A stretch of DNA of 64,000 nt from a virus. Lineage: Duplodnaviria > Caudoviricetes. Below, piece by piece: positions 38,024 to 55,170 of this stretch. A program made the position numbers and the translations under genes. The notes below the pieces were generated by a model. That model did not search any database. It was not told where the DNA came from and was given only the letters and a program-made list of their open reading frames with translations. Location of the stretch: IMG/VR virus record IMGVR_UViG_3300021254_000020, positions 64,001 through 128,000 of that record, one strand, 5' to 3'. Positions within the stretch are counted from its first letter, which is position 1, and the number at the start of each line of letters is the position of its first letter.

Positions 38024-38092
38024 AGTACCACCTCTTATAGTACTCTTAAATAAATCCCTAGACCTAATTGGTCTAGGGACCATTAGTTAGTA

Positions 38093-39220
38093 TTAACCAG
38101 CCTTATTCTGCAGATAGCCCATCAGCTTATCGATAACTGAGAGAATCTTAGCTGCTACTCTCTTAAGTTTTGCAGCTATACCAGAATCTTGAGATGCTTG
38201 AGCTTTCTTCATAAACTTAGCATAGATGCTGCGTAAAGAAGCAATCTTCTTACCAATCACAGACTTAGGCTTATTTTGATAACTCTTGTATGCAGCCAAT
38301 GCAGCACCAGCTCCAGCCAATCCAATAGCTCCTGCAGCCAGCTTTCCTTTATTCTCTGAAGCAAAGTCTTTTACTTTTTCAAAAGTACCCTTTTCAGGAG
38401 CTGCTTTTGCAGGTTCAACCTTAGCAGGAAGATTGTTTACTTCCCCTTTGCTATCAGGTTTGCTGGTAGGAGCATTATCTGGTTCATCTTTAATCTGCAT
38501 TTGGGGAGCAGCTTGAGACTGTGTTTCTTTTTCTTCATTAGCCTTCTTTTCTGCTTCTTCCCTCTTAGACTGATTCAGTTTCATTTTATAGAGACGATCA
38601 GTAGCTGCATCAATATTCTTCAGCTTCTTCTCTTTCTTAGCATTTGCTGCTTGGATCTCATTATGAGCATCTGCTGCACTCTTATCACCAAAATAGAATG
38701 ACTTGTTAGCTGCGTATCTTTCATCAGCATTCTTTTGTTCTGCTTTCTCTATATGGCGCTTACGCATCTCTACCATTTTCTTCATCTGATCTGCGGTTAC
38801 CTCTTCAGATAGGCACAGATCAACGAACTCTTCTTCACTGATATCTTCATTGAAGAAATCAATGCAAGCTTCTTCCATAATGGAGTAGATTAGAGAGTCT
38901 TCATTTACAGGACGGATGAGAAGATTAGAGAAATTGATATCATTACCATATACTTCCGATTCATCCATTACTATACTCATTGAAGACGAATCAATGTTAT
39001 TAGCATTAGCTAACTCAGATACTATCTGCATTACCGGAGTATTGGTCTGCTCTGATAGATTATTAAGATAATAGTAATCTACCAAATAGTTACCATCTTC
39101 TTTTGCTACAACTGGAATCTCATTACAGTTAATACTAGCTTCTTCTTGAGTTAGATAAACTGCCTCATCTAGTTTATCAAAGATACTAGGTTTATACAGC
39201 TGTGATTCTTTGATTAACAT
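38093..39220 (-). CDS. Paralog array member 1 (pro-domain + variable region + Gly/Ala helix + cationic amphipathic hairpin)
   Basis: MLIKESQL...LDEAVYLTQEE; LAAGAIGLAGAGAALAAY; KPKSVIGKKIASLR...KILSVIDKL. Confidence 0.85.
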   Translation of the reverse strand: MLIKESQLYKPSIFDKLDEAVYLTQEEASINCNEIPVVAKEDGNYLVDYYYLNNLSEQTNTPVMQIVSELANANNIDSSSMSIVMDESEVYGNDINFSNLLIRPVNEDSLIYSIMEEACIDFFNEDISEEEFVDLCLSEEVTADQMKKMVEMRKRHIEKAEQKNADERYAANKSFYFGDKSAADAHNEIQAANAKKEKKLKNIDAATDRLYKMKLNQSKREEAEKKANEEKETQSQAAPQMQIKDEPDNAPTSKPDSKGEVNNLPAKVEPAKAAPEKGTFEKVKDFASENKGKLAAGAIGLAGAGAALAAYKSYQNKPKSVIGKKIASLRSIYAKFMKKAQASQDSGIAAKLKRVAAKILSVIDKLMGYLQNKAG

Positions 39221-39235
39221 TTATATCACCTACCA

Positions 39236-39880
39236 TTACTTACGGGCAAACTCTCTACTAAAGTTACTACTAGCCTTTTGAGCAAACTTGAGAAGTTTAT
39301 CAATAGCTTCAGTAACCTTAGTGGCTACTTTTTGAAGAACATTCTTTTCTTTAGGAAGAATACCTCCACCATTGATTTTCTTTTTGAGTTTTGCTAATAC
39401 TTTTCTAAGAGAGGCAATCTTCTTTGCGATTACACCTACCGGTTTGTTTTCATAATCGTATATCTTCTTTAACCCAGTAGCTGCAGTAAGAGCTGCTGCG
39501 GCAGGCATAGACCATTTCATTACTTTTTCTGTAGTAGGATGAGCCCAGAATGCCATTGCTGCCAGTTTCTTTTTCTGAGGTTGATGCACTCCAATAGCTC
39601 TAGCACGACTCTCCATATCTCCAGGCATATCCATTATGAATTTTCTTACTTTAAACGGATTACTAGATATATTTTTAGCATCGTCTTTGATCTGTGAATA
39701 TTGATCCATTCCAAGGCTCATATTGCCCTTATGCTTATATAGAATATCCATATCGTCGTCATCTTTATCTTCACAGAACGAGATAAGATAAGATTCATCC
39801 AACGTCTCTATATATTTACCAACAGCTTCTTCGCACAGCTGATAAATAGGATCGTTTTCATTTACAGTAGTTAATAGCAT
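39236..39880 (-). CDS. Paralog array member 2 (shortened pro-domain)
   Basis: MLLTTVNENDPIYQLCEE; KPVGVIAKKIASLR...AIDKLL. Confidence 0.8.
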   Translation of the reverse strand: MLLTTVNENDPIYQLCEEAVGKYIETLDESYLISFCEDKDDDDMDILYKHKGNMSLGMDQYSQIKDDAKNISSNPFKVRKFIMDMPGDMESRARAIGVHQPQKKKLAAMAFWAHPTTEKVMKWSMPAAAALTAATGLKKIYDYENKPVGVIAKKIASLRKVLAKLKKKINGGGILPKEKNVLQKVATKVTEAIDKLLKFAQKASSNFSREFARK

Positions 39881-39894
39881 CTCTATTCCTCCTT

Positions 39895-40797
39895 TCAAGA
39901 AGAGAATGAATTAGCAGTAGTCTGCATAGCTCTCATCAGTTTATCTATTACTTGCAAGATCTTAGCCCCTACTTTCTTTAGAGTAGCTACTGCTTTAGAA
40001 TCCTTTTTCAATATACCAGGTTTCTTCTCCAGTTTATCCTTAATTCCAGAATACATCTTCCTCAGTTTAGCTATTACTTTAGCAACTACGTTTTTCGGTT
40101 TGTTCTTATAGTTGTCGTATACTTGCTCAATCTTATCTGCAGCTTTGGATCCTATTTTTAATCCTACGCCTGTAGTAAACATTAGTCTCGATGTATTAGC
40201 ACTATCCAAATAATCTGCACTCTTGTTTATTGCTTCCGGATCTTTAAACATACCGAGTTTAGCCCCATATTTTTTACCACCCAGTTTATCCAATTTTTCC
40301 TTATATTTGTTGGCTGTATATGCGTCTTTTACTGAGTTAGCAATACTACCAGCTATGAGTGCATTACCTAATGAGTTAGCAACTCCCTCTAAGAGCGACT
40401 CATCATCCTGTTCTATGGCTTCATTTACCACAGTCTCTACCCATACTCCTACAGGGTCCTTATCAGATATTGGAGATATAACTACTTGATACATCTCATC
40501 TACTACTTCTGGATAGAGAATAGCCATATCTTCTTTGAGATCTACTGCCAACAAGCAAGACGGAACATCGTTAGCTTCAGCAATCTTTTCGATGGCTTCA
40601 TTAAGAGAACATTCGTATTGGTTACTAATTGCTAATACGTCTTCAAACATGACTGTATTGCAATCAATGCTACTATTCTCTCTAACAGTAATTTCTGTAG
40701 GGTATATAGTGCTCTCTTCTTGAGTTAGATAAACAGCCTCATTCAATTTTTCTAAGATATTATTCTTAGATTGAAATTGTTCTTCTTTTATCAGCAT
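39895..40797 (-). CDS. Paralog array member 3
   Basis: MLIKEEQF...LNEAVYLTQEE; KPKNVVAKVIAKLR...KILQVIDKL. Confidence 0.85.
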   Translation of the reverse strand: MLIKEEQFQSKNNILEKLNEAVYLTQEESTIYPTEITVRENSSIDCNTVMFEDVLAISNQYECSLNEAIEKIAEANDVPSCLLAVDLKEDMAILYPEVVDEMYQVVISPISDKDPVGVWVETVVNEAIEQDDESLLEGVANSLGNALIAGSIANSVKDAYTANKYKEKLDKLGGKKYGAKLGMFKDPEAINKSADYLDSANTSRLMFTTGVGLKIGSKAADKIEQVYDNYKNKPKNVVAKVIAKLRKMYSGIKDKLEKKPGILKKDSKAVATLKKVGAKILQVIDKLMRAMQTTANSFSS

Positions 40798-40810
40798 TTA
40801 TATCACTCCC

Positions 40811-41830
40811 TTAACCACCCAGTTTATTCTGAGCATAATTCATCAGTTTGTTTATAGCCCCCGGTGCTTCAGCTGATGCATACTGCCTCAATTGGTCAAT
40901 AAAGAAGTCTGCGTCAACACCTTTACTCTGAGCTTTATTGCTCAGCCAAGCTGCGAATCTATTTATACCATCTTTGGCTTGATCTGTACCAAAGCCAGCA
41001 GCAGCTTGGGCATATTTATTAGTAGGAGTAGCAGGATTTGCCTTTCCATTCCCGAAGTTATTACCCCACCAGTTCTTAATACTTGACCACATACGGGAAA
41101 GCCATCCCTGTTGTTGTTGAGTCGGAGGAGCACTTTTTGGAGGTGTCGTATTTCCCTGTTGTTGATTACCAGTAGCTCCTTCCTTTTGCTTTTTCAGTTC
41201 CATAAATTTCTGAACTGTAGGATTGTTTTCAGCTGCGGTACCAGTCATTAATTTCTTTTGAGGTTGAGTAGGCTGTGGAGTATTATTAGCCGCTTTTTGT
41301 TGTTTCAAAGCCTGCATCTTGGCCAACTCAGTATTATATTCTGGGTCTGTCATGTCAGCTGCAGCACCAGCATTGCCTTCCAGTATACTCATGGCAAACT
41401 CTTCATTAAAACAGGCTTCTTCTAATATATCTAGCCAGATCTGGTTTTCTCCAGAACTAATGTAATTCTCAAGAATATGATCACATATTCTATATGGGGC
41501 ACTATTAGTACTTTCTTTAAATAGAACCACATCAGAAAACTGAGTAAGAATCTCAGGATTGCATAAGGGTCGCCATTCCTCAATAGCTACTACCAATCCT
41601 TTTCTAGGAATACAGTTTTCTTTGATAGTCATGTCTAGTGCTTCGTCTATTGAGATACAATTATCCTCAGATAAAGACAAAAGATCTTTATAATAAACCA
41701 TGTTTCTATGATCTTTGGTCTCTTGAACCGGAACCATACATCCGCATAATCTATCATCAATCATTTCCATATTCTCTAAAAGATATAATGGAGATCTTTC
41801 TTTCTCTTGCATATTATTCGCCTCCGTCAT
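40811..41830 (-). CDS. Paralog array member 4 (conserved pro-domain, divergent Gln-rich C-terminus)
   Basis: VPVQE...VYYKDLLSLSEDN pro-domain; amphipathic GWLSRMWSSIKNWW. Confidence 0.7.
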   Translation of the reverse strand: MTEANNMQEKERSPLYLLENMEMIDDRLCGCMVPVQETKDHRNMVYYKDLLSLSEDNCISIDEALDMTIKENCIPRKGLVVAIEEWRPLCNPEILTQFSDVVLFKESTNSAPYRICDHILENYISSGENQIWLDILEEACFNEEFAMSILEGNAGAAADMTDPEYNTELAKMQALKQQKAANNTPQPTQPQKKLMTGTAAENNPTVQKFMELKKQKEGATGNQQQGNTTPPKSAPPTQQQQGWLSRMWSSIKNWWGNNFGNGKANPATPTNKYAQAAAGFGTDQAKDGINRFAAWLSNKAQSKGVDADFFIDQLRQYASAEAPGAINKLMNYAQNKLGG

Positions 41831-42786
41831 CCAGCATTCTTTTGTAATATGGCCAACAGTTTATCAATAACTGTAAGTATCTTATGAGCGGCATTCTTAA
41901 TAAGACTAGAGTTAGTTTTATCAGAGGTTTTCTCAGCAGCGCTCATCCATTTGGTGTAGATCTTTCTAAGAGAAGCAATCTTTTTACCAATCCATGATTT
42001 TGGTCTGTCTTTGGCCATTTGGACTAGCTTCTGAACTCCTTTGTATCCACCATATGCTGCTAACGCAGTACCACCTAGTTTGAGCTCACCTTTTGCATAA
42101 TTTTTTAATGCATCCTTTTCATGACCACGAAGAATATCAGCATTCATTTTTCTTTCGTCATTTATACTGTTTATTTCATCTTGTGCCATCTTTTTAGCAG
42201 CATCAGTAGCATTCTCATCTCTGAGTAAACGATTATTAGAATTAATAGTTCTATTAGTTGATCTAATATAGTCCGCATTATGCTTTGCTCTAGCTACAGC
42301 ATATCTAGCAGATTGTCCTGCCTTAGCGAAGTCACCAAGATAGAAGTCTTTAATCTTATCTACGAACTCATTTAGATAAGTATCTTCAACAATAGCATCT
42401 AGGTATTTATCATCGCTACTAGTAGACCATTTATCAATACACTCAGAAACATATTGATACTCCAAGCTAGACTCTTTGATAGGAGCTACTACTGAGCACT
42501 CAAATAACATCAATGGATTAATAATCACATCTTCTTCTTTTACTACATTAAGCATCTTACCCATATCAATGTCATTAGCTTTTGCTATATCCTGAAAAAG
42601 ACATTCGACTCCACTTTCAGACAATCTCTCTAAGTAATAGTTATCTACTAAGTAAGAGCCATTATTCTCAACTACTGGGACTTCTTCTACTTTTATCTCA
42701 GCCTCTTCCTGTGTTAAATAAACTGCTTGATCTAGTTGCTCTAATATATTAAATTGAGGCTGTAGATGTTCTTCCTTTATTAGCAT
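41827..42786 (-). CDS. Paralog array member 5
   Basis: MLIKEEHL...AVYLTQEE; RPKSWIGKKIASLR...KILTVIDKL. Confidence 0.85.
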   Translation of the reverse strand: MLIKEEHLQPQFNILEQLDQAVYLTQEEAEIKVEEVPVVENNGSYLVDNYYLERLSESGVECLFQDIAKANDIDMGKMLNVVKEEDVIINPLMLFECSVVAPIKESSLEYQYVSECIDKWSTSSDDKYLDAIVEDTYLNEFVDKIKDFYLGDFAKAGQSARYAVARAKHNADYIRSTNRTINSNNRLLRDENATDAAKKMAQDEINSINDERKMNADILRGHEKDALKNYAKGELKLGGTALAAYGGYKGVQKLVQMAKDRPKSWIGKKIASLRKIYTKWMSAAEKTSDKTNSSLIKNAAHKILTVIDKLLAILQKNAG

Positions 42787-42804
42787 TCTTATCACATCCT
42801 TCAA

Positions 42805-42853
42805 AAATAAATAGGGAGGGAAACTAATCCCTCCCTTATATCTATGTGTGAAT
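42805..42853 (-). terminator. Intergenic terminator element, type A (repeated at 45160-45203)
   Basis: AGGGAGGGAAACTAAYCCCTCCCTTATATCTATGTGTGAAT occurs twice. Confidence 0.75.
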
Positions 42854-42884
42854 TTGAATGAATGAAGAAACTTATGTAATGTGA

Positions 42885-43835
42885 TTAACCGGCTTTCTTT
42901 TGGAGGAATTCCATCAGCTTATCAATAACTGATAGAATCTTGGCAGCGACTTTCTTGAGCTTTGCTGCAATACCATTATCTTTTGCAGACTGGGCTTTCT
43001 TCATGAACTTAGCGTATACCTTTCTTAGAGCAGCAATACGCTTGCCTATCACTGACTTAGGTTTATCCTTATACTGCTTATATGCATATATACCTGCACC
43101 TACAAGAGCTGTTCCTGCTACTGCAGTAGCGATTTTCTTATTTCTTTTCTCATTATGAATTCGACGAATATTTTGCAAACGATTCCAAGCTACGTCAGTT
43201 CTATCGAATCCATCACCAAGCCTTTTATGAGCCTCATTATCTCTTTTTGTTCTCTCACTAGCAGCATCTGCCATTTTCTTATAGTACTCTTTATCATTCC
43301 TATCTATGTTTTTAATATCGTTATAATATTTGTCATAGGATGACAATAACTCTTTGTTTTTACGAGTCTCTAGTTTGTCTAAGTGTCTGTTGACCATAGC
43401 AAGATCTTTTGAATTATCTACCATAATAGCCTCGGTGAATACATCTTCATCTATCTCATCATTGAGATAAGCTTCAGAAACGAAATCGCACCAGAATACT
43501 TCATCGCTATCCTCACTAAGAGGTCTGACTACCATATGTTCTGGATCGAATGATTCTTGCATAGCGATGGCATTTCCCTCATCTACTAATAGAGTGAGGT
43601 TATCAATACCATTAGATTCTTTTATGGCCTCAATGGATTCGAACAACGAATATCCGTTATCTTCTGACAATTTGACCACATATCCGTAGTCTACCATATT
43701 GTTTCCATTTTCTTTTACTACTACCGGAACCTCAGATAGATTTAAACTCGCCTCTTCCTGAGTAATATATACTGCTTCATTAAGCTGATTCAGTATATCA
43801 GTTTTCTGAATGAGTTGGGATTCTTTGATTAACAT
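42885..43835 (-). CDS. Paralog array member 6
   Basis: MLIKESQL...LNEAVYITQEE; IATAVAGTALVGAGIYAY; KPKSVIGKRIAALR...IDKL. Confidence 0.85.
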   Translation of the reverse strand: MLIKESQLIQKTDILNQLNEAVYITQEEASLNLSEVPVVVKENGNNMVDYGYVVKLSEDNGYSLFESIEAIKESNGIDNLTLLVDEGNAIAMQESFDPEHMVVRPLSEDSDEVFWCDFVSEAYLNDEIDEDVFTEAIMVDNSKDLAMVNRHLDKLETRKNKELLSSYDKYYNDIKNIDRNDKEYYKKMADAASERTKRDNEAHKRLGDGFDRTDVAWNRLQNIRRIHNEKRNKKIATAVAGTALVGAGIYAYKQYKDKPKSVIGKRIAALRKVYAKFMKKAQSAKDNGIAAKLKKVAAKILSVIDKLMEFLQKKAG

Positions 43836-43861
43836 AATATCACCTCAATAAATAAATATAA

Positions 43862-43900
43862 AGGGGGATGAACTTAATCACCCCCCCCCCACGTCTATTT
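43862..43900 (-). terminator. Intergenic hairpin element, type B, with poly-C (repeated at 47035-47075)
   Basis: GGATGAACYTAATCA-(C)n-AYGTCTATTT occurs twice. Confidence 0.65.
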
Positions 43901-43911
43901 ATCTCTATTTA

Positions 43912-45132
43912 TCAACCTGCTTTATTTTGCAGATAACCAAGCAGTTTATCAATAACCTTGAGCACATGTGCAGCAACCTTCTTTAGTTTAGCTGCAATAC
44001 CATTATCTTTTGCGGATTGAGCTCTCTTCATGAATTTAGCATAGATCTGACGAAGAGCAGCAATGCGCTTACCGATTACCGACTTAGGTTGGTTCTTATA
44101 CTTCTTATAAGCATACCAAGCACCACCAGCCAAAGCAGCACCACCAACAGCAGCTGCACCATATTTGAGATACTTACCTTTATCAGATCCCGAACTACCA
44201 CCACCAAGCAAGCTGTTAGATGGGCGAGCAATCAATGCTCCGCCATTACCAGATGACGTAGATGGTGAACTTACTGTAGCAGAGACATTGCTTTTCTTCT
44301 CATCAGGAATATCAGCATTGTTTGTTCCATTTGCCGTGTTATTAACTGTATTGCCATTACTATCCGGCTTAGAGATATTTGCTGCTCGTGAGAGTAATCT
44401 CTCATCATCATCTGCGGCTCTATCTTCTTCTGATTTGCGCTCTTTAGCAATCTGACGAAGGCTATCTAATTTATTTTCCGCAGTTTTGCTATTGTCAAAT
44501 AATCGATTACTCCTATTATCAAATGCTTTCCTATGATTAGCCCTTAATTCACCGAATTTTGGTTCGTATTCATCTATTACATCTTTTACTTTTCCGTTTT
44601 TAAACGCTTTGTCTCTATCATCTAAGAGTTTATCCCATTTTTTGTTATATACGTCCCTCTCTCTGTCAAAGTGCTTATCTACTAAGTCTGCATAGTCTTC
44701 AGCTTCGGCAAAAGACATCATCATCTCATAGAATGACTCTTCATTTAGTTCTTCGTTATAGAAGCTTTCACAGATAGCCATTGCTCTAGTATATTCATAG
44801 CTATTCTCAGATACTGGACGAACTACCATTAGTTCTGGATTGAACTGTTCTCCAATAGTAATAGCATCTCCTTCATCAATAGAGATATTGAGAGAGTCTA
44901 ATCCATTAGACTGACTGATCGTAGATAATGCTTCGAACAGACCAATTCCATTCTGTTCAGAAATGCTATTAATATATTCATAGTCTACCAAGTTAGTTCC
45001 ATTTTCTTTTACCACTACTGGAACCTCTGAAGCATGAATCTGAGATTCTTCTTGAGTCAGATATACTGCTTCATTGAGCTGACTCAATATATCATTAGTA
45101 TTCTTAATCAGCTCTGATTCTTTAATAAGCAT
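43912..45132 (-). CDS. Paralog array member 7
   Basis: MLIKESEL...LNEAVYLTQEE; YGAAAVGGAALAGGAWYAY; QPKSVIGKRIAALR...IDKL. Confidence 0.85.
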   Translation of the reverse strand: MLIKESELIKNTNDILSQLNEAVYLTQEESQIHASEVPVVVKENGTNLVDYEYINSISEQNGIGLFEALSTISQSNGLDSLNISIDEGDAITIGEQFNPELMVVRPVSENSYEYTRAMAICESFYNEELNEESFYEMMMSFAEAEDYADLVDKHFDRERDVYNKKWDKLLDDRDKAFKNGKVKDVIDEYEPKFGELRANHRKAFDNRSNRLFDNSKTAENKLDSLRQIAKERKSEEDRAADDDERLLSRAANISKPDSNGNTVNNTANGTNNADIPDEKKSNVSATVSSPSTSSGNGGALIARPSNSLLGGGSSGSDKGKYLKYGAAAVGGAALAGGAWYAYKKYKNQPKSVIGKRIAALRQIYAKFMKRAQSAKDNGIAAKLKKVAAHVLKVIDKLLGYLQNKAG

Positions 45133-45205
45133 ATTCATTCATTCCTTTCGTTAAATATTATAAGGGAGGGAAACTAACCCCTCCCTTATATCTATGTGTG
45201 AATAT

Positions 45206-46144
45206 TTACTTACTAAGATCATTTGCAGCCTTCTGCATTTTAAACATAAGCTTATCTATTGTGGTAAGAATCTTACCAGCAAACTTCTTAAGCTTATTTT
45301 TGATACCTTTATCTCCAGCACTATTCATCTTGTCCATAATCTTAGAATACATCTTACGAAGTTTTGCGATAGCTTTAGCTATTACATTACGAGGCCTATT
45401 TTTATACTTCAGATAAAGGCTGTCCAGGGTTGCTGCTGTTTGTCCAACAGCGGCAGATTTGAGTCCTTTGGCCCCAAAACTAAGACCAGCAACTCCCCAG
45501 TTACGATATCTATCAGCCTTTTTCTGCTCATCTGGTGATAACGGTACAACATCTGAATTATCGGTAGCTTGTTTATATTTATGACCAGCATATCCAGCTA
45601 ATGCAGCCCCAGCTCCAGCTTTCATCAAGCCTAATCTTCTTGTATGTTTACCGAATGCCTGAATGTACCCATGTAAGCCACTATCAGCATCATAATCTTT
45701 TAGCTCAGTTAATGAGATCAGATTGGATTCCATTAGTTCTACATCATCTTTTTCGTAGGCATCTTCTACAATAGATTCTACTAGAATGCCGATAGGATCA
45801 TTGCTACTCATTTCAGATACTACTATATTATTCAATCCATATACGATATCAGGATCTTCTACAATAGTATCTTCGCTTACTGCTACAACTAGTTTATCTA
45901 GTTCTACATCATTAGCTTCAGCAATAATACTCATTGCCTCTGCATAAGAGATACCATATTCTTCTGATAGAAGATCAACATCTTCGAATCTAACCATAGC
46001 AACCCCTTCACCAAGACGGCTCATTTCACGAACCGGAATGGTTACAGGATGAACTTTGGATTCTTCTTCGCTGATATAAATAGCTTCGTCTAGTATTTTC
46101 AAACCACTCAGGCTGTTCTTTAATTCACTTTCCTTTATAAGCAT
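45206..46144 (-). CDS. Paralog array member 8
   Basis: Start moved to MLIKESEL; RPRNVIAKAIAKLR...KILTTIDKL. Confidence 0.85.
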   Translation of the reverse strand: MLIKESELKNSLSGLKILDEAIYISEEESKVHPVTIPVREMSRLGEGVAMVRFEDVDLLSEEYGISYAEAMSIIAEANDVELDKLVVAVSEDTIVEDPDIVYGLNNIVVSEMSSNDPIGILVESIVEDAYEKDDVELMESNLISLTELKDYDADSGLHGYIQAFGKHTRRLGLMKAGAGAALAGYAGHKYKQATDNSDVVPLSPDEQKKADRYRNWGVAGLSFGAKGLKSAAVGQTAATLDSLYLKYKNRPRNVIAKAIAKLRKMYSKIMDKMNSAGDKGIKNKLKKFAGKILTTIDKLMFKMQKAANDLSK

Positions 46145-46231: not shown

Positions 46232-47008
46232 TCAACCGAGTTTGTTAGCTCCACGCTGCATAGCCTGCAACAGTTTATCAATTACAGTCATAAGAGCATG
46301 GCCAGCTTTCTTGAAAACAGAAGCAATCTTAGCATCTTTTTCAATCTTGGCTTTTTCCATCCATTTAGAATAAATCTTACGAAGTGATGCGATCTTTTTA
46401 GCAATTACATTGCGCGGACGATCTTTGAATTTATTGTATAAACCCTTAATCGTTCTAATGTCAGTTTTCGCATTAGTTTTAAAGTTGTAATACGGGGCTT
46501 TGATCCCATGAGTTTGCCAGGATTTTTTCGTAGCCTTAGCACTCCACTTAACATCATCTTTTAGATCCCCGAGAATTCCTTCATCAAGAACTGCTTCGAG
46601 AACGCTTTCATCACCAGATTCCAGATAAGCATCAGTAACTGCTTCGCAGAACTGATAAATTACATCATTGTCGCTGATCGGAGCTACAACAACGTTAGCC
46701 AATTCATCAAGAACTTCCGGAGATTCGATGATAGTAGCTTCATCAACAGCAATAGTCATTTTAGATGCATCTACTTCACTAGCTTCAGCAATAGCAGCTA
46801 CTGCATCCATATAAGAAACCTGACTATCTTCAGCCAGACGTTCTACATCTGCAAAGCGAACCATTGTTACACCTTCACCAAGACGACTCATTTCACGAAC
46901 CGGAATGGTTACAGGCTGAACTTTGGATTCAGATTCGTCTATATATACAGCTTCATTGAGCTGATTGATTACATTGGTCTTATTAATACATGATTCTTTA
47001 ATAAGCAT
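46232..47008 (-). CDS. Paralog array member 9
   Basis: MLIKESCI...LNEAVY; RPRNVIAKKIASLR...VIDKL. Confidence 0.85.
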   Translation of the reverse strand: MLIKESCINKTNVINQLNEAVYIDESESKVQPVTIPVREMSRLGEGVTMVRFADVERLAEDSQVSYMDAVAAIAEASEVDASKMTIAVDEATIIESPEVLDELANVVVAPISDNDVIYQFCEAVTDAYLESGDESVLEAVLDEGILGDLKDDVKWSAKATKKSWQTHGIKAPYYNFKTNAKTDIRTIKGLYNKFKDRPRNVIAKKIASLRKIYSKWMEKAKIEKDAKIASVFKKAGHALMTVIDKLLQAMQRGANKLG

Positions 47009-47085
47009 TTATATCACCTCGTAACAAATATATTGGAGGAGGATGAACCTAATCACCCCCCCCCATGTCTATTTGAATGTAGTTA

Positions 47086-47961
47086 TCAGCCAGCAGCTTT
47101 CTGCAGTTTGGCCATCAATTTATCGATGATAGCCATCAATTTACCGGCCGCAGCTTTCAGTCGACCAGCCACAGAAGCATCGGAGTTCTGAGCCTTCTTC
47201 ATCCATTTAGCATAGATATTGCGAAGAGCAGCGATCTTTTGACCAATCCAAGATTTGGGTTTACCATCAGCAGATTTCAAAATTTTGTAGCCGAGACCAA
47301 GTCCAGCAGTAGCAAGAGCTGCACCGCCTAGTGCCTTAGGATTGTCTTTTGCAAACTGAACAGCTTTACCAGCAGCACCTTTTACTGCATCAGCAGCTTT
47401 GCCAAAGGTACCTTTTTCTTTGGGTTGATCTACTGCAACCGGAGGATTCTTATCTTCTTTTGGAGCAGGAAGGGCCTTAATCTCTTCTGCTTCAATAAAT
47501 GCCTCAAGATCAGAATCCTCTACAAGAGCTGCTTCGAGCATAGTATCTACTTCATCTGTGTCATCCATACCGGCCCAAGCATCAATGCATTCTGCCACAT
47601 ACTTATATGCCAGACTGTTTTCGCTCAGCGGAGCTACAACGATGTTGGTCATTTCGTCCAACAGTGACGGATCAACAATCAGATCAGCTTCATCAACAGC
47701 GATAGTCATTTTAGATGCATCTACTTCACTAGCTTCAGCAATAGCAGCTACTGCATCCATATAAGAAACCTGGCTGTCTTCAGCCAGACGTTCTACATCT
47801 GCAAAACGAACCATCGTTACACCTTCACCAAGACGGCTCATTTCACGAACCGGAATGGTTACAGGCTGAACTTTTGATTCTTCTTCACTAAGAAACGTTG
47901 CTTCAGCAAGCATGGACATCGGGTCCAGCCGACTTTGCAACTGTGATTCTTTAATCAACAT
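47086..47961 (-). CDS. Paralog array member 10
   Basis: MLIKESQL; ALGGAALATAGLGLGY; KPKSWIGQKIAALR...IIDKL. Confidence 0.85.
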   Translation of the reverse strand: MLIKESQLQSRLDPMSMLAEATFLSEEESKVQPVTIPVREMSRLGEGVTMVRFADVERLAEDSQVSYMDAVAAIAEASEVDASKMTIAVDEADLIVDPSLLDEMTNIVVAPLSENSLAYKYVAECIDAWAGMDDTDEVDTMLEAALVEDSDLEAFIEAEEIKALPAPKEDKNPPVAVDQPKEKGTFGKAADAVKGAAGKAVQFAKDNPKALGGAALATAGLGLGYKILKSADGKPKSWIGQKIAALRNIYAKWMKKAQNSDASVAGRLKAAAGKLMAIIDKLMAKLQKAAG

Positions 47962-47990
47962 GATTAGTTCCTCCATTCATTCATTATTTA

Positions 47991-48788: not shown

Positions 48789-48847
48789 GACCTACTCCTC
48801 CTTCTTTAAAGCATTAACAGCACTTAGCCATTATTTAGATGTATCTC

Positions 48848-49513
48848 TTAACCCTCATCAGCTACCGGTTTTACTTTGAATACATCGGCATTAGAATCAT
48901 GCTTGTTAATACCATTGTGGACGGTCTTAGGATCTGGGTCACCACCTGCAGTCTTAGCTGCAAGAATAGAAGGAACATTAACTTTGCTGGTTTCAGGATC
49001 TTCACCATCACCTACAAAGTTACTATCACTCTTTTGGAACTGGTTTACCGGAATCTTGTGCAGCAAACCATCTGCTTTTGCTACTCCAGTGGATACACCC
49101 TGACCACAATTGCAGTTGTCTTTACCACAAGCACATTCCTCACCCAGCTTGAAGATGGATTTATCAATTGCATCTTCTTTTACTGCTTTCTTTTTATCTT
49201 TCTCACCATTGCATTCAGGGCAGCTTTTAGATCCGCAGTTGCATGCTTCATTCAATTTAAAGAAAGGCATCTTTGCTTCCTCCTTTATGTTTTCTTCTTC
49301 ATTAGAATTGTTATTTCCGCGACTTAATTTTTGACGATAGCTTTCCGGTATTTCACCATTCTTTATGAAGTCTCTAGCTACCCTATCCATATTGGATTTA
49401 GGTCCTTGGTCTTCATGCCTCTTATCGTACAGTAAACTGGCTATGGTGAACTTACCGTTAGTAGCGCGGTCAATAACGTCCTCCGATAAAGAGAATAAGT
49501 TTGGGTGTCTCAT
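48848..49513 (-). CDS. Hypothetical protein with two metallothionein-like Cys clusters
   Basis: FFKLNEACNCGSKSCPEC and IFKLGEECACGKDNCNC. Confidence 0.65.
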   Translation of the reverse strand: MRHPNLFSLSEDVIDRATNGKFTIASLLYDKRHEDQGPKSNMDRVARDFIKNGEIPESYRQKLSRGNNNSNEEENIKEEAKMPFFKLNEACNCGSKSCPECNGEKDKKKAVKEDAIDKSIFKLGEECACGKDNCNCGQGVSTGVAKADGLLHKIPVNQFQKSDSNFVGDGEDPETSKVNVPSILAAKTAGGDPDPKTVHNGINKHDSNADVFKVKPVADEG

Positions 49514-49524
49514 ATTATACTACC

Positions 49525-49830
49525 TCATTTCTTAATTAAAGAACCAGTAGTATTGGTAGGACTATTCGGGATTTGTCTTTTTATAAGAGAAGTTTGCATC
49601 TGTTTCTGACCAGCACTAGTGGGATTACCAGCAAACCCTTTAGCTCCTACAGCCTTAGCAAAGTTGTTAACTTTGGTCTGTGCTCTATTAGCTGCATTGG
49701 TTACTGATCTACCAGCATCTCGTACTCTATTAACGATTCCGCTTACAGCACTAGATGCATTTCCTAGATTGGTCTGAACACGATTCTTCACATCATCAAG
49801 AAATCCCTCTTGAAAGGTAACGTATCTCAT
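49525..49830 (-). CDS. Small basic amphipathic protein with a short E-terminated leader
   Basis: MRYVTFQE/GFLDDVKNRV...; start moved to 49830. Confidence 0.6.
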   Translation of the reverse strand: MRYVTFQEGFLDDVKNRVQTNLGNASSAVSGIVNRVRDAGRSVTNAANRAQTKVNNFAKAVGAKGFAGNPTSAGQKQMQTSLIKRQIPNSPTNTTGSLIKK

Positions 49831-49843
49831 GATGGTACCCTCA

Positions 49844-50689
49844 TTACATGTAATCGTATTTACCGGCAATGATATCTTTGATACGCTGTACACCAGCCTG
49901 ATAAGGATCGAGATTAGCAGATTCTTCTACTGCTTCATCTTCGTCTTCTTCCTCATCATCATCGTCATCCTTTTCTTTGGACTTCTTGGATTTCTTCTCA
50001 TCTTTATCGTCGTCCTTATCTTCGCATTCCTTGCATTTCTTATCTTTCTTTTCGGGTTCTTCTTCATGGATTACATCCTGATCTGCACCCTTCTTCAGCT
50101 CTACATCTTCTTCAGATGCTTGCTTTGCTGCTTCCAGGAACCCTTCCTGCTTGTAGTTCTTCTTTACAAGAGGTAGGCCATATCGACCAGTGATAAGATC
50201 CAAGAGTTGTTTGGTGTTAGCTACACGACGAATCTTAGCGAAATCTTTCTGATCATTACCGAAAATAGGTTTACCCAAACCAGGTTCAGGATTAGCAACA
50301 CTACCATCAGTATTATGACCTAAGTCTTCCATCTCATCTAAGATTGATGCTTCGTCTACTACTATAGCAACGTCATAGAAACGATCAGCAACATCGTTAG
50401 CTTCTAGTATATTACTAATAGCCGTCTTTACATTGACGACACCATTAGTCAACATATAACGACTGAGATCTTCCATCTCAATCAAAAGACGACCCAATCG
50501 GTCGCTCTGACGAACAACAACCATGTCAGGACTAAAACGCATTTCCTGCTCGTTAAGAGAAGGCATATTCGTCAGCATCTGAGCTACATCTTCCAAGAGA
50601 GTACGATCAGCTGTCTCTGGTAGAGTAAGACCAGACTCATTAATAGCCATTTCGGAAAGGGTCTGTATAGCTGATTTAAACAGTGACAT
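49844..50689 (-). CDS. Paralog array member 12 (pro-domain plus acidic tail; possible scaffold)
   Basis: SLNEQEMRFSPDMVVVRQSDRLGRLLIEMEDL matches the pro-domain of members 11 and 13. D/E-rich C-terminus. Confidence 0.7.
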   Translation of the reverse strand: MSLFKSAIQTLSEMAINESGLTLPETADRTLLEDVAQMLTNMPSLNEQEMRFSPDMVVVRQSDRLGRLLIEMEDLSRYMLTNGVVNVKTAISNILEANDVADRFYDVAIVVDEASILDEMEDLGHNTDGSVANPEPGLGKPIFGNDQKDFAKIRRVANTKQLLDLITGRYGLPLVKKNYKQEGFLEAAKQASEEDVELKKGADQDVIHEEEPEKKDKKCKECEDKDDDKDEKKSKKSKEKDDDDDEEEDEDEAVEESANLDPYQAGVQRIKDIIAGKYDYM

Positions 50690-50691
50690 TA

Positions 50692-51603
50692 TTACCCCTC
50701 CTTAGAGAATTTGCTCTTGATTTTGTCAATACCACTAGTAATACCATTCTTCACTTTAGAAGCCTGGTTGCTAACAGCATCTGCAGCTTTGCCACCCATC
50801 TCCTTAGCACTCTTAGCAGCACCAGAGATCTTCTTACCAGCACTATCCTTCAAATCGAACAGTTTGGATTTTAGTGATTTAGCCATAGCTTTCAGCTTAT
50901 CCATTTGACGAACAATCAGAGCTTTTGCACTAGCCGGAGCTTTCTTGGCTTCAGCCGCCTTAGCAGCAAGTGCCTTACGAACACTAGCCAGTTTCTTTGA
51001 TACTACAGATACAGCTCCTGACACTTTGTTTTTGGCCACACCATATGCGCCAGATACTTTATCCTTAGCATAGTCATAACCAGAGGATACCTTTCCTTTA
51101 GCGGTATTAAATCCACTAGAGAGTTTATCCTTAGCATCAGTGATGATGGACTCGTTCAAATAGTTCAAGCAATTTACACTCTCATCAAGAGTAGCATATT
51201 CCTGATCCATTTCAAGAGCTTCCATCAAAGAGCTGTAATACAAACTATCACTAGAAATACGAGCAACGTGACAGGGAAATCCAGCTTCGGCCAATTGAGT
51301 AAATGTATCAGCCAATTCATCATCAGCAATGATATTTTCTTCATTAGCTACAAAGCCCAAGTTATCCCGAGGAACACTATTAGCCTCACATACTCTATGG
51401 ATAGCAAGTCCAGCATCTTCGATGCCATAACACTGAGCAAAACCTAAGAATGATTCCAGCTGAATGAGATCTTGACCAAGACGAGAATTATGGCGTACAT
51501 TTACCATACTCGGGTCAAAAGCACTCTCACTCAGACTAAGATGGTCTATGCTGTCGAGGAGAGCAGTTGCTTCTCCCAACAGCTGATTCTGCTTAATCAG
51601 CAT
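50692..51603 (-). CDS. Paralog array member 13 (apolipoprotein/LEA-like 11-mer repeats)
   Basis: MLIKQNQL; LNE/SII followed by AKDKLSSGFNT-AKGKVSSGYDY-AKDKVSGAYGV repeats; VVSKKLASVR. Late promoter at 51653-51667. Confidence 0.8.
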   Translation of the reverse strand: MLIKQNQLLGEATALLDSIDHLSLSESAFDPSMVNVRHNSRLGQDLIQLESFLGFAQCYGIEDAGLAIHRVCEANSVPRDNLGFVANEENIIADDELADTFTQLAEAGFPCHVARISSDSLYYSSLMEALEMDQEYATLDESVNCLNYLNESIITDAKDKLSSGFNTAKGKVSSGYDYAKDKVSGAYGVAKNKVSGAVSVVSKKLASVRKALAAKAAEAKKAPASAKALIVRQMDKLKAMAKSLKSKLFDLKDSAGKKISGAAKSAKEMGGKAADAVSNQASKVKNGITSGIDKIKSKFSKEG

Positions 51604-51687
51604 TTTTCATAACTCCTTCCATTATGGTATTAGCTGAACACAGTAGTTCAGCCATTATAGGTTTGTCAAGTAAGTTAATTAATTCCA

Positions 51688-51894
51688 TTAAGATCTAGAT
51701 TGATTTATTGCCCTTTGCCGTTCATCAACTAGTTTAGCGATATGGGGAGGAACGTCCTTCTCATTCACTTCCGTAGTTGTTTTGTATATATTCATTTTCG
51801 GCTTACCAAGAAGCTTGTTAGTGGAATTAGTAACAGTAGATTTCAGTTTATCCATGAATCCCTCATTGAGATTTTGTGGTTTAAAGAACGGCAT
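51688..51894 (-). CDS. Small protein with an LNE-terminated leader
   Basis: MPFFKPQNLNE/GFMDKLKS... Confidence 0.6.
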   Translation of the reverse strand: MPFFKPQNLNEGFMDKLKSTVTNSTNKLLGKPKMNIYKTTTEVNEKDVPPHIAKLVDERQRAINQSRS

Positions 51895-51899
51895 ATCAT

Positions 51900-52466
51900 T
51901 CACCACCATTTACTATTATTGGCTACATAATCTACATTCTTATTCATCAACCAAATATAATCTCTCTTGGCTTGAGAAGAACCAGCCTCTCTATCATTCC
52001 AAGCGTCGACTACAGTATCTCTCAGGTCTTTGAATTTCTTCACTAACCAAGCAATGGCTTGTTTAATAGTATAAATAACAGTGGCAATGAATCCACCCTC
52101 TTCAGCCCTAGCTCTTGCCCTCCTACTTTCCATCTCCTCTAATTTATCTCTTAGAGCACGGAATAATACTTTAGCAGATCTAGGTTCTTTAACGAGTTTC
52201 CCAGCAGTATATTTGGTGATACCTAATGCAGCACCAATAGCAGTAATTCCCTCATCATCAGCAGATTCATTCAAGTTATTTAATGGGAACGTGGTGTTCT
52301 TAATATCATTAGCAATAATTTGGATATCATCTAGAGTACCACATTCTCCAAGAATAAACTCAGCCATCTTATATTGGAAAATACCACTTTCTACATATGC
52401 TTCTAAATTATTGGAAAACTCATTAGCCATTTCATTTTCTTGAGGGGTATTATCATTAATCAGCAT
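51900..52466 (-). CDS. Paralog array member 14 (short)
   Basis: MLIND...LNES; GITAIGAALGI; EPRSAKVLFRALR...GFIATVIYTIKQAIAWL. Confidence 0.7.
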   Translation of the reverse strand: MLINDNTPQENEMANEFSNNLEAYVESGIFQYKMAEFILGECGTLDDIQIIANDIKNTTFPLNNLNESADDEGITAIGAALGITKYTAGKLVKEPRSAKVLFRALRDKLEEMESRRARARAEEGGFIATVIYTIKQAIAWLVKKFKDLRDTVVDAWNDREAGSSQAKRDYIWLMNKNVDYVANNSKWW

Positions 52467-52479
52467 GATTATCCCTCCA

Positions 52480-53406
52480 TTATTTCTTGATACCTCTTAT
52501 CTTATTCATGATGGCATCTTTAAGTCTAATAAGCGCATCTATTCCCTTTTGAACTAAGCTTTTCTTATTCTGATCATATTCACCACTGGCCAGCTTTCTG
52601 CTAAAGAAGCTAATCTTCTGAGTAACCTGATCAAACATATCTCTTAGTTTATCTGCAACAGCTCCAGCTCCACCATTAGCCATATCACCAACAGTACTAG
52701 CAAGAGATCTCTTCATACCATTAACAAAGTCACCAACTGCTTCCAAACCCTCACCACTAACACCATGTGCTTGAGCAATGTTTTGAATAGCTTGAGTAGG
52801 AGCAAAGCTATCCAGTCTACGTCTAGCAGCACCTTCACCAGCAGATTTTACACCACTGCTTACTGCATTTTTAGCAGCATTGAGTCCTACAGATACTGCA
52901 CCCATAGCAGTATCTTTTGCACCTTGACTGATTCCTCTTTTAACCCCTGAGAAAAAGTCTCCAAGACCTTCATTAACAATAGCATCAATGGCTTCGCTAT
53001 TATCAGTTTCTACAGCTTCTTGTAGCTTATCTCCAAATGCTTTTGCAAGAGGATTTTGGTTTACTCTAGCGTATACTTCCTTACCCTCTTTAATGAGAGA
53101 TTTGTATAAATTATTAGCTTCTTCATTCATACAGATAGTGCTAGGACGAATGGAGTAGCAAATATCTGATTCACAAATTCTATTCATCTCAGATACTTTC
53201 TCAATCAATTCGTTAAAACCAATATTATTCTCATGACAGAATCGATATCCTTCTTCTACACTGATCATATACTGATCACAATTAGGTCTCTCATAAATCT
53301 TAAATAAGCTAAGTTGTTCAGTTTCAGAATCTGCCTCTTCATCAATAGGAAGATAGCTCATCTCTTCTAGAACAGACTTAGTATTCTCTCTAGTATTAAA
53401 TAGCAT
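52480..53406 (-). CDS. Paralog array member 15
   Basis: MLFNTRE...VLEE; IVNE/GLGDFFSGVKRG; SLVQKGIDALIRLKDAI. Late promoter at 53427-53441. Confidence 0.7.
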   Translation of the reverse strand: MLFNTRENTKSVLEEMSYLPIDEEADSETEQLSLFKIYERPNCDQYMISVEEGYRFCHENNIGFNELIEKVSEMNRICESDICYSIRPSTICMNEEANNLYKSLIKEGKEVYARVNQNPLAKAFGDKLQEAVETDNSEAIDAIVNEGLGDFFSGVKRGISQGAKDTAMGAVSVGLNAAKNAVSSGVKSAGEGAARRRLDSFAPTQAIQNIAQAHGVSGEGLEAVGDFVNGMKRSLASTVGDMANGGAGAVADKLRDMFDQVTQKISFFSRKLASGEYDQNKKSLVQKGIDALIRLKDAIMNKIRGIKK

Positions 53407-53446
53407 ATTGATTCAACCTCCTTTATAATTACTCTCATGTCTTCCA

Positions 53447-54238
53447 TCATCTATTTAGCATACTATGTAATTTATCAGTCAACTTTCTTATAGCAGCCTT
53501 TATCTTCCATAGTATCTTACCAATTATTCCCTTATTCTCCCAGTGCTCTCTTTCAGCCCGTTCATACTTTGATTCATACTCTGCTTTTTTGCCAGCTAGT
53601 ACTCTTAGCTTCTTAATTAACTCTGATCTCTGCCATCTTGGTTTTCTAGCATCATTATCAGCAACATGATCAGCTATCTTTTTCCCTACATAAAGAGTTC
53701 CTAATAGAGCAGCACCTTGCTTAGCTGTTCTTTTTAGATTATCCTTTGCTTCTCTTTTTGCTTGGTTAATCTGTTTAGGAACCTCACTTCTAATAGCACT
53801 GGTTATTCCATGAACAAAACCATTCTTCAAATCTTCTATATCACTTTCGTTTATGAATTGATCAAAGAGAGTAAAGTCTTGGTATTGCTCATAAAATGAT
53901 ATAGCATCCTCTATAAGTTTAGTATGATGCTTAGTATTTAGTGGACGTATAGACACCTTGGTGTTCTTAATATACTTCTTTTTATTTCTTAGATAATGAG
54001 GATTATTTATTAGCCTAACCTCATCAACTATAACTCCTAGTTTAGATGGATCTACATGATAATGGCTATATATTAGGCCCTCTTTACCAGACTCTACTAA
54101 AGAGATATAATCATCTAAAAAAATATAGACGGTACCATCAAGGGATTCTATTAATCTAGCTTCTTCGATAGTCATATCTCTATATTGTATTCTGGGAAGA
54201 GAATCTAATACGCTGGGCTGATCTACAAACTTAATCAT
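53447..54238 (-). CDS. Paralog array member 16
   Basis: VIVDE...RPL pro-domain remnants; INES; GAALLGTLYVG; LIKKLRVL...GIIGKILWKIKAAIRKL. Confidence 0.7.
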   Translation of the reverse strand: MIKFVDQPSVLDSLPRIQYRDMTIEEARLIESLDGTVYIFLDDYISLVESGKEGLIYSHYHVDPSKLGVIVDEVRLINNPHYLRNKKKYIKNTKVSIRPLNTKHHTKLIEDAISFYEQYQDFTLFDQFINESDIEDLKNGFVHGITSAIRSEVPKQINQAKREAKDNLKRTAKQGAALLGTLYVGKKIADHVADNDARKPRWQRSELIKKLRVLAGKKAEYESKYERAEREHWENKGIIGKILWKIKAAIRKLTDKLHSMLNR

Positions 54239-55170
54239 TTTACCAACCCCACTTTACGCCCTAGGGCTTGTATAGCCCATTTAATCTTAGCAATAATCTT
54301 AGAGATTATGCCCTGCTGCTGAGGAGGAGCTGTCTGCGCTTTACCAGTAAGAATATTTAGCATCTTATTCAGACTATTAATCATTCTAGTAGCTACTCCT
54401 GGATTAGCATTATTTATATTATCCTGACTAGTGAGACTATTAAACATAGCACCCATACCACCAAGTACTGCTACTACTCCAGCACCAAATTTAGCTCCTC
54501 GAACATATGGTTTCAATTTATCTTTAGTGGTACCAGCAGCTTTGTCTATAGTGTTACCAACTACCTTATTAGCTGTATCAGACATGTTGCTGATAAACTT
54601 CTTTTTTCTTTCAGGATCGCTTAGATAATCTTGAGCACCTTTCATCAAACCACTAGTTAGTTTAGAACCTATATAGCCCAAAACATCATTCTTGGCTTGA
54701 TTATAACTATCCTTAGCATCGTTTCCTAGTTTATTCAATCCCTGAAGTTGGCTACTAGTCCAAGATAATACACCCTCAGTCAACATCTCAGTCATATAGG
54801 TATCTTCAGCAGCTAGATCCATTTCTACTACATCTTCTAATACCTTATCCAATTGGAAATCAGTACCAGCATCAACATACTGCATCTTGATATTATTTAT
54901 AGACTCTAATACAGCATCTCTATATTCTGTATTCTCATAAAACATAGCTTGATGAACTACAGCTATACACTCATTCACTTTATGCTCTTTAGCAATATCC
55001 TTCATAGCTTTAGTAAGAGTAATCTCTTTTCTATTAGCCGTCTCAATAATAGAGGAAAAGTTAACAATACATTCTTCTCTATTCTTTGGTCTAGCTATAA
55101 TCATACTCTCATTAGTGATTCTAGGTAATACCAATGGGATTGGTTTCGTTTGTGACCGTGATATTAACAT
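54235..55170 (-). CDS. Paralog array member 17
   Basis: MLISRSQ; LTE/GVL; FGAGVVAVLGGMGAMF; GIISKIIAKIKWAIQAL. Confidence 0.7.
   Translation of the reverse strand: MLISRSQTKPIPLVLPRITNESMIIARPKNREECIVNFSSIIETANRKEITLTKAMKDIAKEHKVNECIAVVHQAMFYENTEYRDAVLESINNIKMQYVDAGTDFQLDKVLEDVVEMDLAAEDTYMTEMLTEGVLSWTSSQLQGLNKLGNDAKDSYNQAKNDVLGYIGSKLTSGLMKGAQDYLSDPERKKKFISNMSDTANKVVGNTIDKAAGTTKDKLKPYVRGAKFGAGVVAVLGGMGAMFNSLTSQDNINNANPGVATRMINSLNKMLNILTGKAQTAPPQQQGIISKIIAKIKWAIQALGRKVGLVK

Follow-up and report, generated by a model that had tools for sequence, protein, structure and literature searches.

The window analyzed here, a 64,000-nucleotide stretch of DNA (bases 64001 to 128000 of the 266,420-bp IMG/VR virus record IMGVR_UViG_3300021254_000020, judged complete), contains a tandem array of genes between positions 38093 and 55170 in which an acidic N-terminal domain (N-domain) and a basic C-terminal helical hairpin (C-hairpin) recur around a variable center. 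The protein family that the array encodes is large, previously undescribed, and uncharacterized. We tentatively favor the reading that these genes encode lineage-specific late pro-proteins of the head interior, the acidic domain of which would be diced by the prohead protease so that basic products are left. Because virion-class promoters go together with a design suited to protease cutting, the family is probably this lineage's version of packaged internal head proteins, such as those of T4, phiKZ, and SPN3US.

Paralogs and their modules

Hidden Markov models (HMMs) of the N-domain and the C-hairpin were built separately and searched against every open reading frame (ORF) of at least 60 amino acids (634 ORFs) of the 266-kb genome. 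Matches were confined to array ORFs (38093 to 55176), with the N-domain in 16 and the C-hairpin in 14 to 15. The ORFs with at least one module number 17, all on the minus strand, and 13 of them (38093 to 51603) are linked directly to each other by BLASTP. A preliminary description of the window, made from the sequence alone, had recognized about 17 same-strand modular paralogs and had suggested a search with HMMs of the two modules; the paralogs were confirmed, and the search, run on the whole genome, restricted both modules to the array, which occupies ∼6% of the genome. Tandem duplication is backed by DNA-level repeats within the array. An N-domain block at 46668 to 46930 is 88% identical over 263 nucleotides to 47618 to 47880 (the block also recurs at 45801 to 46063), and the neighboring paralogs that carry these copies have unrelated centers. 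This degree of identity suggests recent exchange, by gene conversion or module exchange, inside the array.

The two ends of the proteins are opposite in charge, as had been proposed and as the computed charges bear out. The first 140 residues, which make up most of the acidic N-domain (∼145 amino acids), have a net charge of −15 to −26 and a pI of ∼4.1, versus +10 to +16 and a pI of ∼10.4 for the last 70 residues with the helical hairpin; the whole proteins are mildly acidic. The center (40 to 202 amino acids; net charge, +2 to +9) is Ala/Lys-rich and consists of 69 to 84% disorder-promoting residues. Consistent with its earlier characterization as hypervariable, it is the fastest-evolving part even between orthologues (25 to 69% identity, compared to 81 to 87% for the N-domain and 78 to 97% for the hairpin). 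Its disorder-type composition fits relaxed constraint and host-driven diversification equally well. The N terminus, M-L-[FI]-[TK]-E, is conserved, with E5 in 63% and an aliphatic residue at −2 in 93%, and may be a targeting or cleavage signal.

An uncharged Gly/Ala-rich 15-mer lies just before the hairpin in 5 of the 10 canonical window members and in 78 of 104 homologues. It had been described as a hydrophobic helix present in most members; the segment is there, but it is not a canonical transmembrane helix. The best 19-residue Kyte-Doolittle mean ranges from 0.63 to 1.51 across all 17 members and reaches 1.6 in none, so that no member has a canonical transmembrane helix, and an integral membrane or holin-like identity was rejected. 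The conserved hydrophobic residues of the hairpin follow a 3-4 spacing (202, 206, 209, 213, 216/217, and 220 and then 232, 235/236, 239, 243, 246, and 250). Because this spacing is that of heptads, the seam is of the coiled-coil type rather than a broad lipid-binding face.

When 1.84 billion metagenome cluster representatives were searched with a profile, 727 relatives were recovered, 530 of them at an E value of <1e-10. Nearly all have the full architecture and the conserved M-L-[FI]-[TK]-E start, and the named copies are all annotated "hypothetical protein." Matches in BFVD were only to uncharacterized proteins, with several copies in the uncultured gut "Myoviridae sp. ctIty1." Tandem same-strand arrays are found on related metagenome contigs, one with five members in 5.4 kb, one with four in 5.2 kb, and three others with three members each, and scans of IMG/VR yielded one relative, L001. 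In another contig, L025, a family member with an MLFTE start lies directly after a homologue of the major head protein (84.5% identity) on the same strand, and the spacer between the two genes consists of a hairpin and a ribosome-binding site only.

The preliminary description had not recognized the family, and neither did any library tried. Scans of the members against PHROGs, Pfam, and NCBIfam assigned no family, and tblastn and megablast searches against 50,697 phage records returned no match. The family profile gave only one low-complexity match when searched against Listeria LPJP1, Staphylococcus S6, Bacillus BpSp and Goe21, Fusobacterium JD-Fnp4, SPN3US, and phiKZ. Among solved structures, sequence searches found only a designed helical repeat (E value, 0.029), and the ESM Atlas gave no usable match. 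A tape measure profile, phrog_167, was matched (E value, 1.6e-6) by 50692 to 51603, only over its repeat-rich C-terminal part, and by no other member. An apolipoprotein-type family was rejected. The ApoLp-III (24.2 bits versus a cutoff of 36.3), Apolipoprotein (21.7 versus 90), and Perilipin (20.5 versus 33) matches are all below the Pfam cutoffs and are limited to two divergent members.

Late promoters and the prohead protease

The genome is that of a 266-kb gut/rumen jumbo phage. A subunit of its multisubunit RNA polymerase is ∼30% identical to its nearest relatives, those of the AR9/PBS1-like jumbo phages of Bacillus, Staphylococcus, and Listeria. Also encoded are a large terminase, GroEL, a head maturation protease, several PHROG "virion structural protein" genes, and a major head protein (phrog_20655; genome positions 63406 to 65430), the gene for which spans the start of the window (window part, 3 to 1430).

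The motif ACA-N6-TAAT occurs 26 times in 17,978 nucleotides of upstream intergenic DNA, compared to 1.8 expected, mostly 27 to 63 nucleotides before start codons. Genes preceded by this motif, which matches the AR9 late consensus, AACA-(6N)-TA/G (PMC5312081), include that for the major head protein, five with PHROG "virion structural protein" matches, two for RNA polymerase subunits, and a 5,640-amino-acid ORF. Four copies were found in and just upstream of the array, at the sites that had previously been named as late promoters (Table 1). Early-type motifs, TATATTAT-(6N)-G and an TATACTATA variant, correspond to the consensus for early promoters of AR9, AAATATATATTAT-(6N)-G (PMC5312081). None of the TATATTAT/TATACTAT motifs lies within 38 to 55.2 kb or upstream of any array gene. 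These motifs support the assignment of the array genes to a predicted late/virion promoter class.

The genome encodes a T4 gp21-type S77 prohead protease (Peptidase_S77, 51.7 bits with a cutoff of 27, at genome positions 37483 to 37959; phrog_207/3014 head maturation protease). Its gene (genome positions 37138 to 38019) is located 26 kb upstream of the window, behind a 246-amino-acid ORF with a late promoter. The characterized relatives of this protease all cleave after Glu (PMC5694885).

Sites of the corresponding type are strongly enriched in the acidic half of the array proteins. Over residues 1 to 150 of 15 paralogs, [LIVMF]-x-E was counted 163 times, compared with an expectation of 86.5 when the same residues are shuffled (z, 10.7), and [LIVMF]-x-E-[SGA] occurs 74 times versus 15.9 (z, 15.6; 4.7-fold); the latter motif occurs 707 times versus 160 expected in 145 homologues. 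Among the control motifs, [LIVMF]-x-D (z, 1.4) and [LIVMF]-x-x-E (z, 0.2) were near expectation, and [SAG]-x-E, the phiKZ/SPN3US type, was depleted (z, −3.3). Of the 13 Glu columns conserved in the N-domain, 10 (5, 19, 25, 39, 60, 75, 90, 102, 113, and 122) have an aliphatic residue at −2, and the basic C-terminal part has almost no [LIVMF]-x-E motifs. When the whole proteome was ranked by enrichment, the family members came first, followed by the protease and then by virion structural genes and the major head protein. The sites in the protease (195, 206, 236, and 252) are in the C-terminal tail past the catalytic domain, where relatives auto-cleave, and those in the major head protein (29, 87, 105, and 178) are ahead of the conserved fold. 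This distribution is what a T4-like site, with an aliphatic residue at P3, Glu at P1, and a small residue at P1′, would be predicted to give. T4 gp21 prefers Leu/Ile at P3.

Structure model, proposed processing, and alternative readings

An AlphaFold2 model of the canonical member at 46232 to 47008, built from a 136-sequence alignment, had a predicted local distance difference test score (pLDDT) of 84.9 and a predicted template modeling score (pTM) of 0.78. It consists of a small alpha/beta N-domain, helices at 116 to 167, a disordered stretch at 169 to 182, and the hairpin at 198 to 257. Since residues 112 to 258 superpose on four-helix bundles (e.g., with a root mean square deviation of 2.5 Å over 82 residues), the model places the basic hairpin against the final helices of the acidic part. 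When the N-domain was modeled alone (pLDDT, 86.8), the confidence of residues 1 to 20 was 64 to 72, versus 82 to 87 in the full-length model, which suggests that these residues may also touch the hairpin. The predicted packing of the hairpin on the helices of the N-terminal part fits a masking role for the acidic domain. Foldseek searches of the PDB returned no match, either with the full-length model or with the N-domain. In a wide VIA-align search, the full-length model reached Z scores of ≤8.8, which is the unspecific range for helical hairpins and bundles, and the N-domain reached ≤4.0.

Paralogous head proteins with cleaved pro-regions have been described in other jumbo phages. The SPN3US E-protein paralogs gp53 and gp54 lose N-terminal propeptides of 125 to 137 amino acids at multiple sites, and their identical N terminus bears an early site (PMC10052503, PMC5694885). 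The phiKZ inner-body paralogs have PF12699 in common and are proteolyzed and injected (bioRxiv 10.1101/2024.03.24.586471). The array resembles these systems in that multicopy jumbo-phage paralogs occur together with a Glu-specific prohead protease, in the putative long N-terminal pro-region with several motifs and a conserved extreme N terminus with a candidate early site, and in a copy number that varies between phages. It differs in the aliphatic, T4-like P3 of its motif and the depletion of [SAG]-x-E and in its AR9-like lineage, and processing and packaging are here proposed from sequence. Pfam PF12699 (phiKZ_IP) had no match at an E value of ≤0.1 in 10 members or in the whole genome in six frames, and the family profile found no homologue in the phiKZ and SPN3US genomes.

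Two further systems can be compared. The SPN3US virion contains a 20-member head paralog family B, which includes the tandem gp138 to gp154 (PMC10052503, PMC5694885). Like the array, this is a tandem, same-strand set of ∼17 genes in a jumbo phage, coding for head proteins of 280 to 480 amino acids and of unknown function. Family B does not have the acidic-N/basic-C layout, no cleavage of a member is reported in PMC5694885 or PMC10052503, and the array family is not homologous to gp138 to gp154 (hhalign probability, 0.3%; E value, 0.22). The T4 internal proteins are basic, DNA binding, and polymorphic and are packaged and ejected after cleavage of an N-terminal targeting sequence (PMC9026906). 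IPI, IPII, and IPIII are precursors with a conserved N-terminal leader that the S77 protease cuts after Glu, and they are polymorphic between related phages. In the present genome, an S77 protease is likewise encoded, and both portions of the predicted mature part, the center and the last 70 residues, are basic. The pro-piece of the T4 proteins is ∼10 residues, in contrast to the folded 145-amino-acid acidic domain found here, and they have no sequence similarity to the array proteins and no conserved C-terminal hairpin.

In the processing route that we propose, a precursor near charge balance, in which the helices of the acidic N-domain pack on and mask the basic hairpin, would be made alongside the virion proteins and incorporated into the prohead core. 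There the S77 protease would cut after Glu at the numerous [LIVMF]-x-E-[SGA] sites of the N-domain, and the resulting small acidic peptides would exit the head. The strongly basic remainder, composed of the Ala/Lys-rich disordered center, often the Gly/Ala segment, and the hairpin, would stay with the packaged DNA and neutralize or organize it, much as the internal proteins do in T4 or the inner body does in phiKZ; at ejection, it would probably leave together with the DNA. Packaging and cleavage, as well as what becomes of the basic products and what they do, are inferred from the features described above. The composition and the coiled-coil hairpin of the predicted products favor DNA association or self-assembly.

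Several observations speak against such processing or against a head-internal role. The N-domain is a well-folded domain of 145 amino acids and not obviously a disposable peptide, and cleavage need not separate it from the hairpin, because both may form one bundle. At the boundary between the N-domain and the center, the acidic position is Glu in just 38 to 46% of sequences. The motif z scores overstate the evidence, because the paralogs share ancestry and are not independent samples, and a hydrophobic-x-E-small pattern could arise partly from the periodicity of amphipathic helices. A distance of 37 kb separates the array from the major head protein gene, and the protease gene is 64 kb away. 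Exact late motifs are absent from the downstream half of the array (positions 47976 to 38093). Given this and the strong hairpins between the genes, that half would need weaker variants of the promoter or read-through. Gene order around the array differs between relatives; in the IMG/VR relative the array adjoins homologues of window genes 16107 to 25689, and on other contigs it adjoins recombination genes. Furthermore, none of the cultured phages searched carries the family.

It is possible, if rather unlikely, that the proteins are virion associated and unprocessed, with the N-domain and the hairpin forming one globular base and the variable disordered center serving as a displayed or space-filling loop. 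Such proteins could be internal head proteins like those of SPN3US family B, or they could be capsid decoration or "hairy" surface proteins. The whole-chain pTM, the packing of the hairpin on the N-terminal helices, the joint conservation of both ends in almost all 727 relatives, and the late promoter class all fit this reading, and cleavage in SPN3US spares most head proteins (42) and the 20-member family B (PMC10052503, PMC5694885). What this explanation leaves unexplained is the Glu-specific enrichment of [LIVMF]-x-E-[SGA], which is confined to the acidic half, and the extreme segregation of charge. It seems improbable that the proteins function late in infection without ever entering the particle, as assembly scaffolds or chaperones, lysis-associated proteins, or organizers of the infected cell, although late promoters also drive nonstructural late functions. 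Scaffolding proteins of the P22 type bind coat protein via a basic C-terminal helix-turn-helix, to which the basic C-terminal helical hairpin of the array proteins is similar. Because the hairpin is their most conserved module, it would suit binding to a conserved partner, for example, the inner face of the coat protein. No homology to P22-type scaffolds was detected, scaffolds are not 17-member families, and 17 diverged paralogs with hypervariable centers would be unusual for a scaffold or lysis role. A scaffold role would, moreover, still put the proteins in the prohead. There is also precedent for a diced assembly protein in T4 gp22, an acidic core protein that is cut up by the protease (PMC5694885).

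The preliminary description had proposed the array as a candidate protease-activated, membrane-active cargo system. In this reading, the cationic Gly/Ala and hairpin products would insert in or remodel the host membrane at entry, for example, as a channel or a vesicle around the injected DNA. We consider this quite improbable. It is true that the uncharged Gly/Ala segment adjoins the hairpin in 75% of homologues and that some members with 11-mer amphipathic repeats have weak Apolipoprotein, ApoLp-III, Perilipin, and tape-measure-like matches. The injected phiKZ inner-body paralogs, in addition, copurify with membrane/lipid proteins and colocalize with a lipid vesicle (bioRxiv 10.1101/2024.03.24.586471). 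However, hydropathy does not exceed 1.51, several members have no Gly/Ala segment, and the hydrophobic residues of the hairpin form a heptad seam typical of coiled-coil packing. The structural matches to hairpins of PspA/ESCRT-III (Z, 7.8) are within the unspecific range for helical hairpins. The likeness to bacteriocins or apolipoproteins that had been suggested is not supported; the apolipoprotein-type matches are far below the Pfam cutoffs and limited to two divergent members. DNA binding fits the Ala/Lys-rich remainder at least as well as membrane activity. What stands of the earlier interpretation, as far as can be judged indirectly, is the late class, the Glu-type protease, the enriched motif, and a model compatible with masking; the membrane activity is not supported. 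A broader proposal, which we regard as a long shot, is that the array represents a class of charge-masked pro-proteins, in which the acidic domain would keep the cationic Gly/Ala and hairpin module inert in the producing cell until dicing by the head protease arms it within the capsid; upon ejection, the 17 products would act on the membrane of a Gram-positive host and/or coat the incoming DNA, giving a protective compartment or channel. We know of no chimallin-type nucleus shell in this lineage, and this genome was not searched for one.

The paralogous internal proteins that jumbo phages package amount to tens of megadaltons. To our knowledge, insight into their roles in genome protection, host takeover, and head assembly is just emerging and is limited to phiKZ-like phages with Gram-negative hosts. 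If the array proteins are head-internal pro-proteins, then the family, with its hundreds of diverged relatives, would be a nonhomologous counterpart of the phiKZ-type internal proteins in an uncultured AR9-related gut/rumen lineage, and most likely it fills a known jumbo-phage role by a nonhomologous route. It offers a cleavage motif that is concrete enough to test ([LIVMF]-x-E and then a small residue), together with a design of acidic mask and basic payload that could help to map head-protease substrates. Possibly, this design could also serve, in the way that the T4 capsid targeting sequence does, for loading foreign proteins into capsids.

Coordinates, transcription elements, and neighboring genes

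The members of the array are listed in order of transcription, followed by the promoters and hairpin elements (Table 1).

Table 1. Members of the array and associated transcription elements, in window coordinates
Feature	Position	Strand	Basis
Family member 1 (MLISRS start), transcribed first; N-domain (divergent) and C-hairpin	54235..55170	-	HMM N-domain E 3.2e-11, C-hairpin E 3.7e-12
Family member 2, divergent N-domain and C-hairpin	53447..54238	-	HMM N-domain 1e-7, C-hairpin 7e-5
Family member 3; N-domain, Gly/Ala/Ser 11-mer-like center, divergent repeat-rich C terminus	52480..53406	-	HMM N-domain 6.7e-10; alignment
Short member, 188 amino acids, MLIND start, weak hairpin only	51900..52466	-	HMM C-hairpin 1.3e-3
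Member with N-domain and long divergent C-terminal part of amphipathic repeats	50692..51603	-	HMM N-domain 1.1e-28; subthreshold Apolipoprotein/Perilipin and tape-measure-like matches
N-domain-only member, acidic D/E/K tail in place of hairpin	49844..50689	-	HMM N-domain 4.9e-13
Member with N-domain and C-hairpin, without Gly/Ala segment	47991..48788	-	HMM N-domain 4.6e-37, C-hairpin 7.3e-13
Canonical member	47086..47961	-	HMM N-domain 1e-55, C-hairpin 1.2e-23
Canonical member, 258 amino acids, used for structure model	46232..47008	-	HMM N-domain 3.6e-61, C-hairpin 2.2e-26; AlphaFold2 pLDDT 84.9, pTM 0.78
Canonical member, MLIKE start at 46144	45206..46144	-	HMM N-domain 1e-50, C-hairpin 4.6e-25
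Canonical member, longest center (∼200 amino acids)	43912..45132	-	HMM N-domain 7.9e-38, C-hairpin 3.4e-26
Canonical member; 30 metagenome homologues	42885..43835	-	HMM N-domain 2.9e-42, C-hairpin 1.1e-27
Canonical member	41827..42786	-	HMM N-domain 6.2e-42, C-hairpin 3.1e-25
Divergent member, Q/N/P-rich center, weak hairpin	40811..41830	-	HMM N-domain 1e-30, C-hairpin 5.7e-4
Canonical member	39895..40797	-	HMM N-domain 7.8e-50, C-hairpin 4.8e-20
N-truncated member; last third of N-domain and hairpin	39236..39898	-	HMM N-domain positions 105-160 only, C-hairpin 6e-19
Canonical member, last of array	38093..39220	-	HMM N-domain 2.5e-35, C-hairpin 2.3e-28
Late-type promoter ACA-N6-TAAT, preceding 55121-55933, the head of the first transcription unit of the array	55965..55977	-	
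Late-type promoter preceding 52480-53406	53428..53440	-	
Late-type promoter preceding 50692-51603	51654..51666	-	
Late-type promoter preceding 47991-48788	48830..48842	-	
Intrinsic-terminator-like G-rich hairpin and T-run after 47086-47961	47034..47065	-	Repeat family D9
Similar G-rich hairpin and T-run elements between array genes	46171-46196, 45153-45203, 43860-43889, 42813-42836	-	

The hairpins in the spacers are candidate leaky terminators, attenuators, or 5′ stabilizers. In three of five spacers, a late-like motif, ACA-N6-TA, is found just upstream of the hairpin, and a transcript from such a motif would, because of this position, begin with the hairpin. The gene-hairpin-gene layout of the array recurs in L025, between the major head protein gene and the family member. 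Animal-gut RNA libraries of two studies yielded contigs that cover much of 38 to 52 kb, and contigs of both studies end at the hairpin at 47034 to 47065 (positions 47035 and 47062). This is a weak hint of real transcripts; the contigs are assembled and were chosen with this stretch, so that they cannot rank expression or exclude DNA carryover and the uncovered parts are uninformative.

Early promoters occur genome-wide in two classes, the AR9-early-like TGTAAA...TATATTAT-(6N)-G(TGA) and a variant, TTATATACTATA..AGTGA. Both are ∼8-fold enriched in upstream intergenic DNA, where they precede small genes (e.g., at window positions 57436, 35974, and 14709). Sigma-70-like promoters were not enriched (62 found versus 64.7 expected), and a candidate promoter motif, "ATAATGGCT," was rejected because it was not recurrent.

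Three small ORFs that do not belong to the family are interspersed in the array (48848 to 49513, 49525 to 49893, and 51688 to 51909). The one of 221 amino acids has two Cys-rich repeats (F-x-L-x-E-x-C-x-C-G...C..C). The small ORFs have leader-like starts in common (MPFFK..NE and MRYVTFQE), followed by GF[LM]D, and may be further protease-processed small head proteins.

MLIKE-like leaders were sought on the other proteins of the genome, and only the neighboring 655-amino-acid Nudix-kinase protein (MLVKINES) has a similar start, which is insufficient for a claim. Just downstream of the array are large multidomain Nudix/P-loop-kinase proteins and a solo kinase (29696 to 32182, 32188 to 34155, and 37361 to 38083). 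These proteins start with MIITIPKEPIDES and MLVKINES and have [LIVMF]-x-E-[SG] near their N termini and at, for example, position 220 (LNES); they are candidates for packaged enzymes that are cut by the S77 protease. Elsewhere in the genome (214420 to 215535, plus strand), a 371-amino-acid ORF without a known family adjoins virion structural genes. It has the third-highest enrichment of [LIVMF]-x-E-[SGA] in the proteome (8 versus 1.5 expected) and is a candidate scaffold or core protein.

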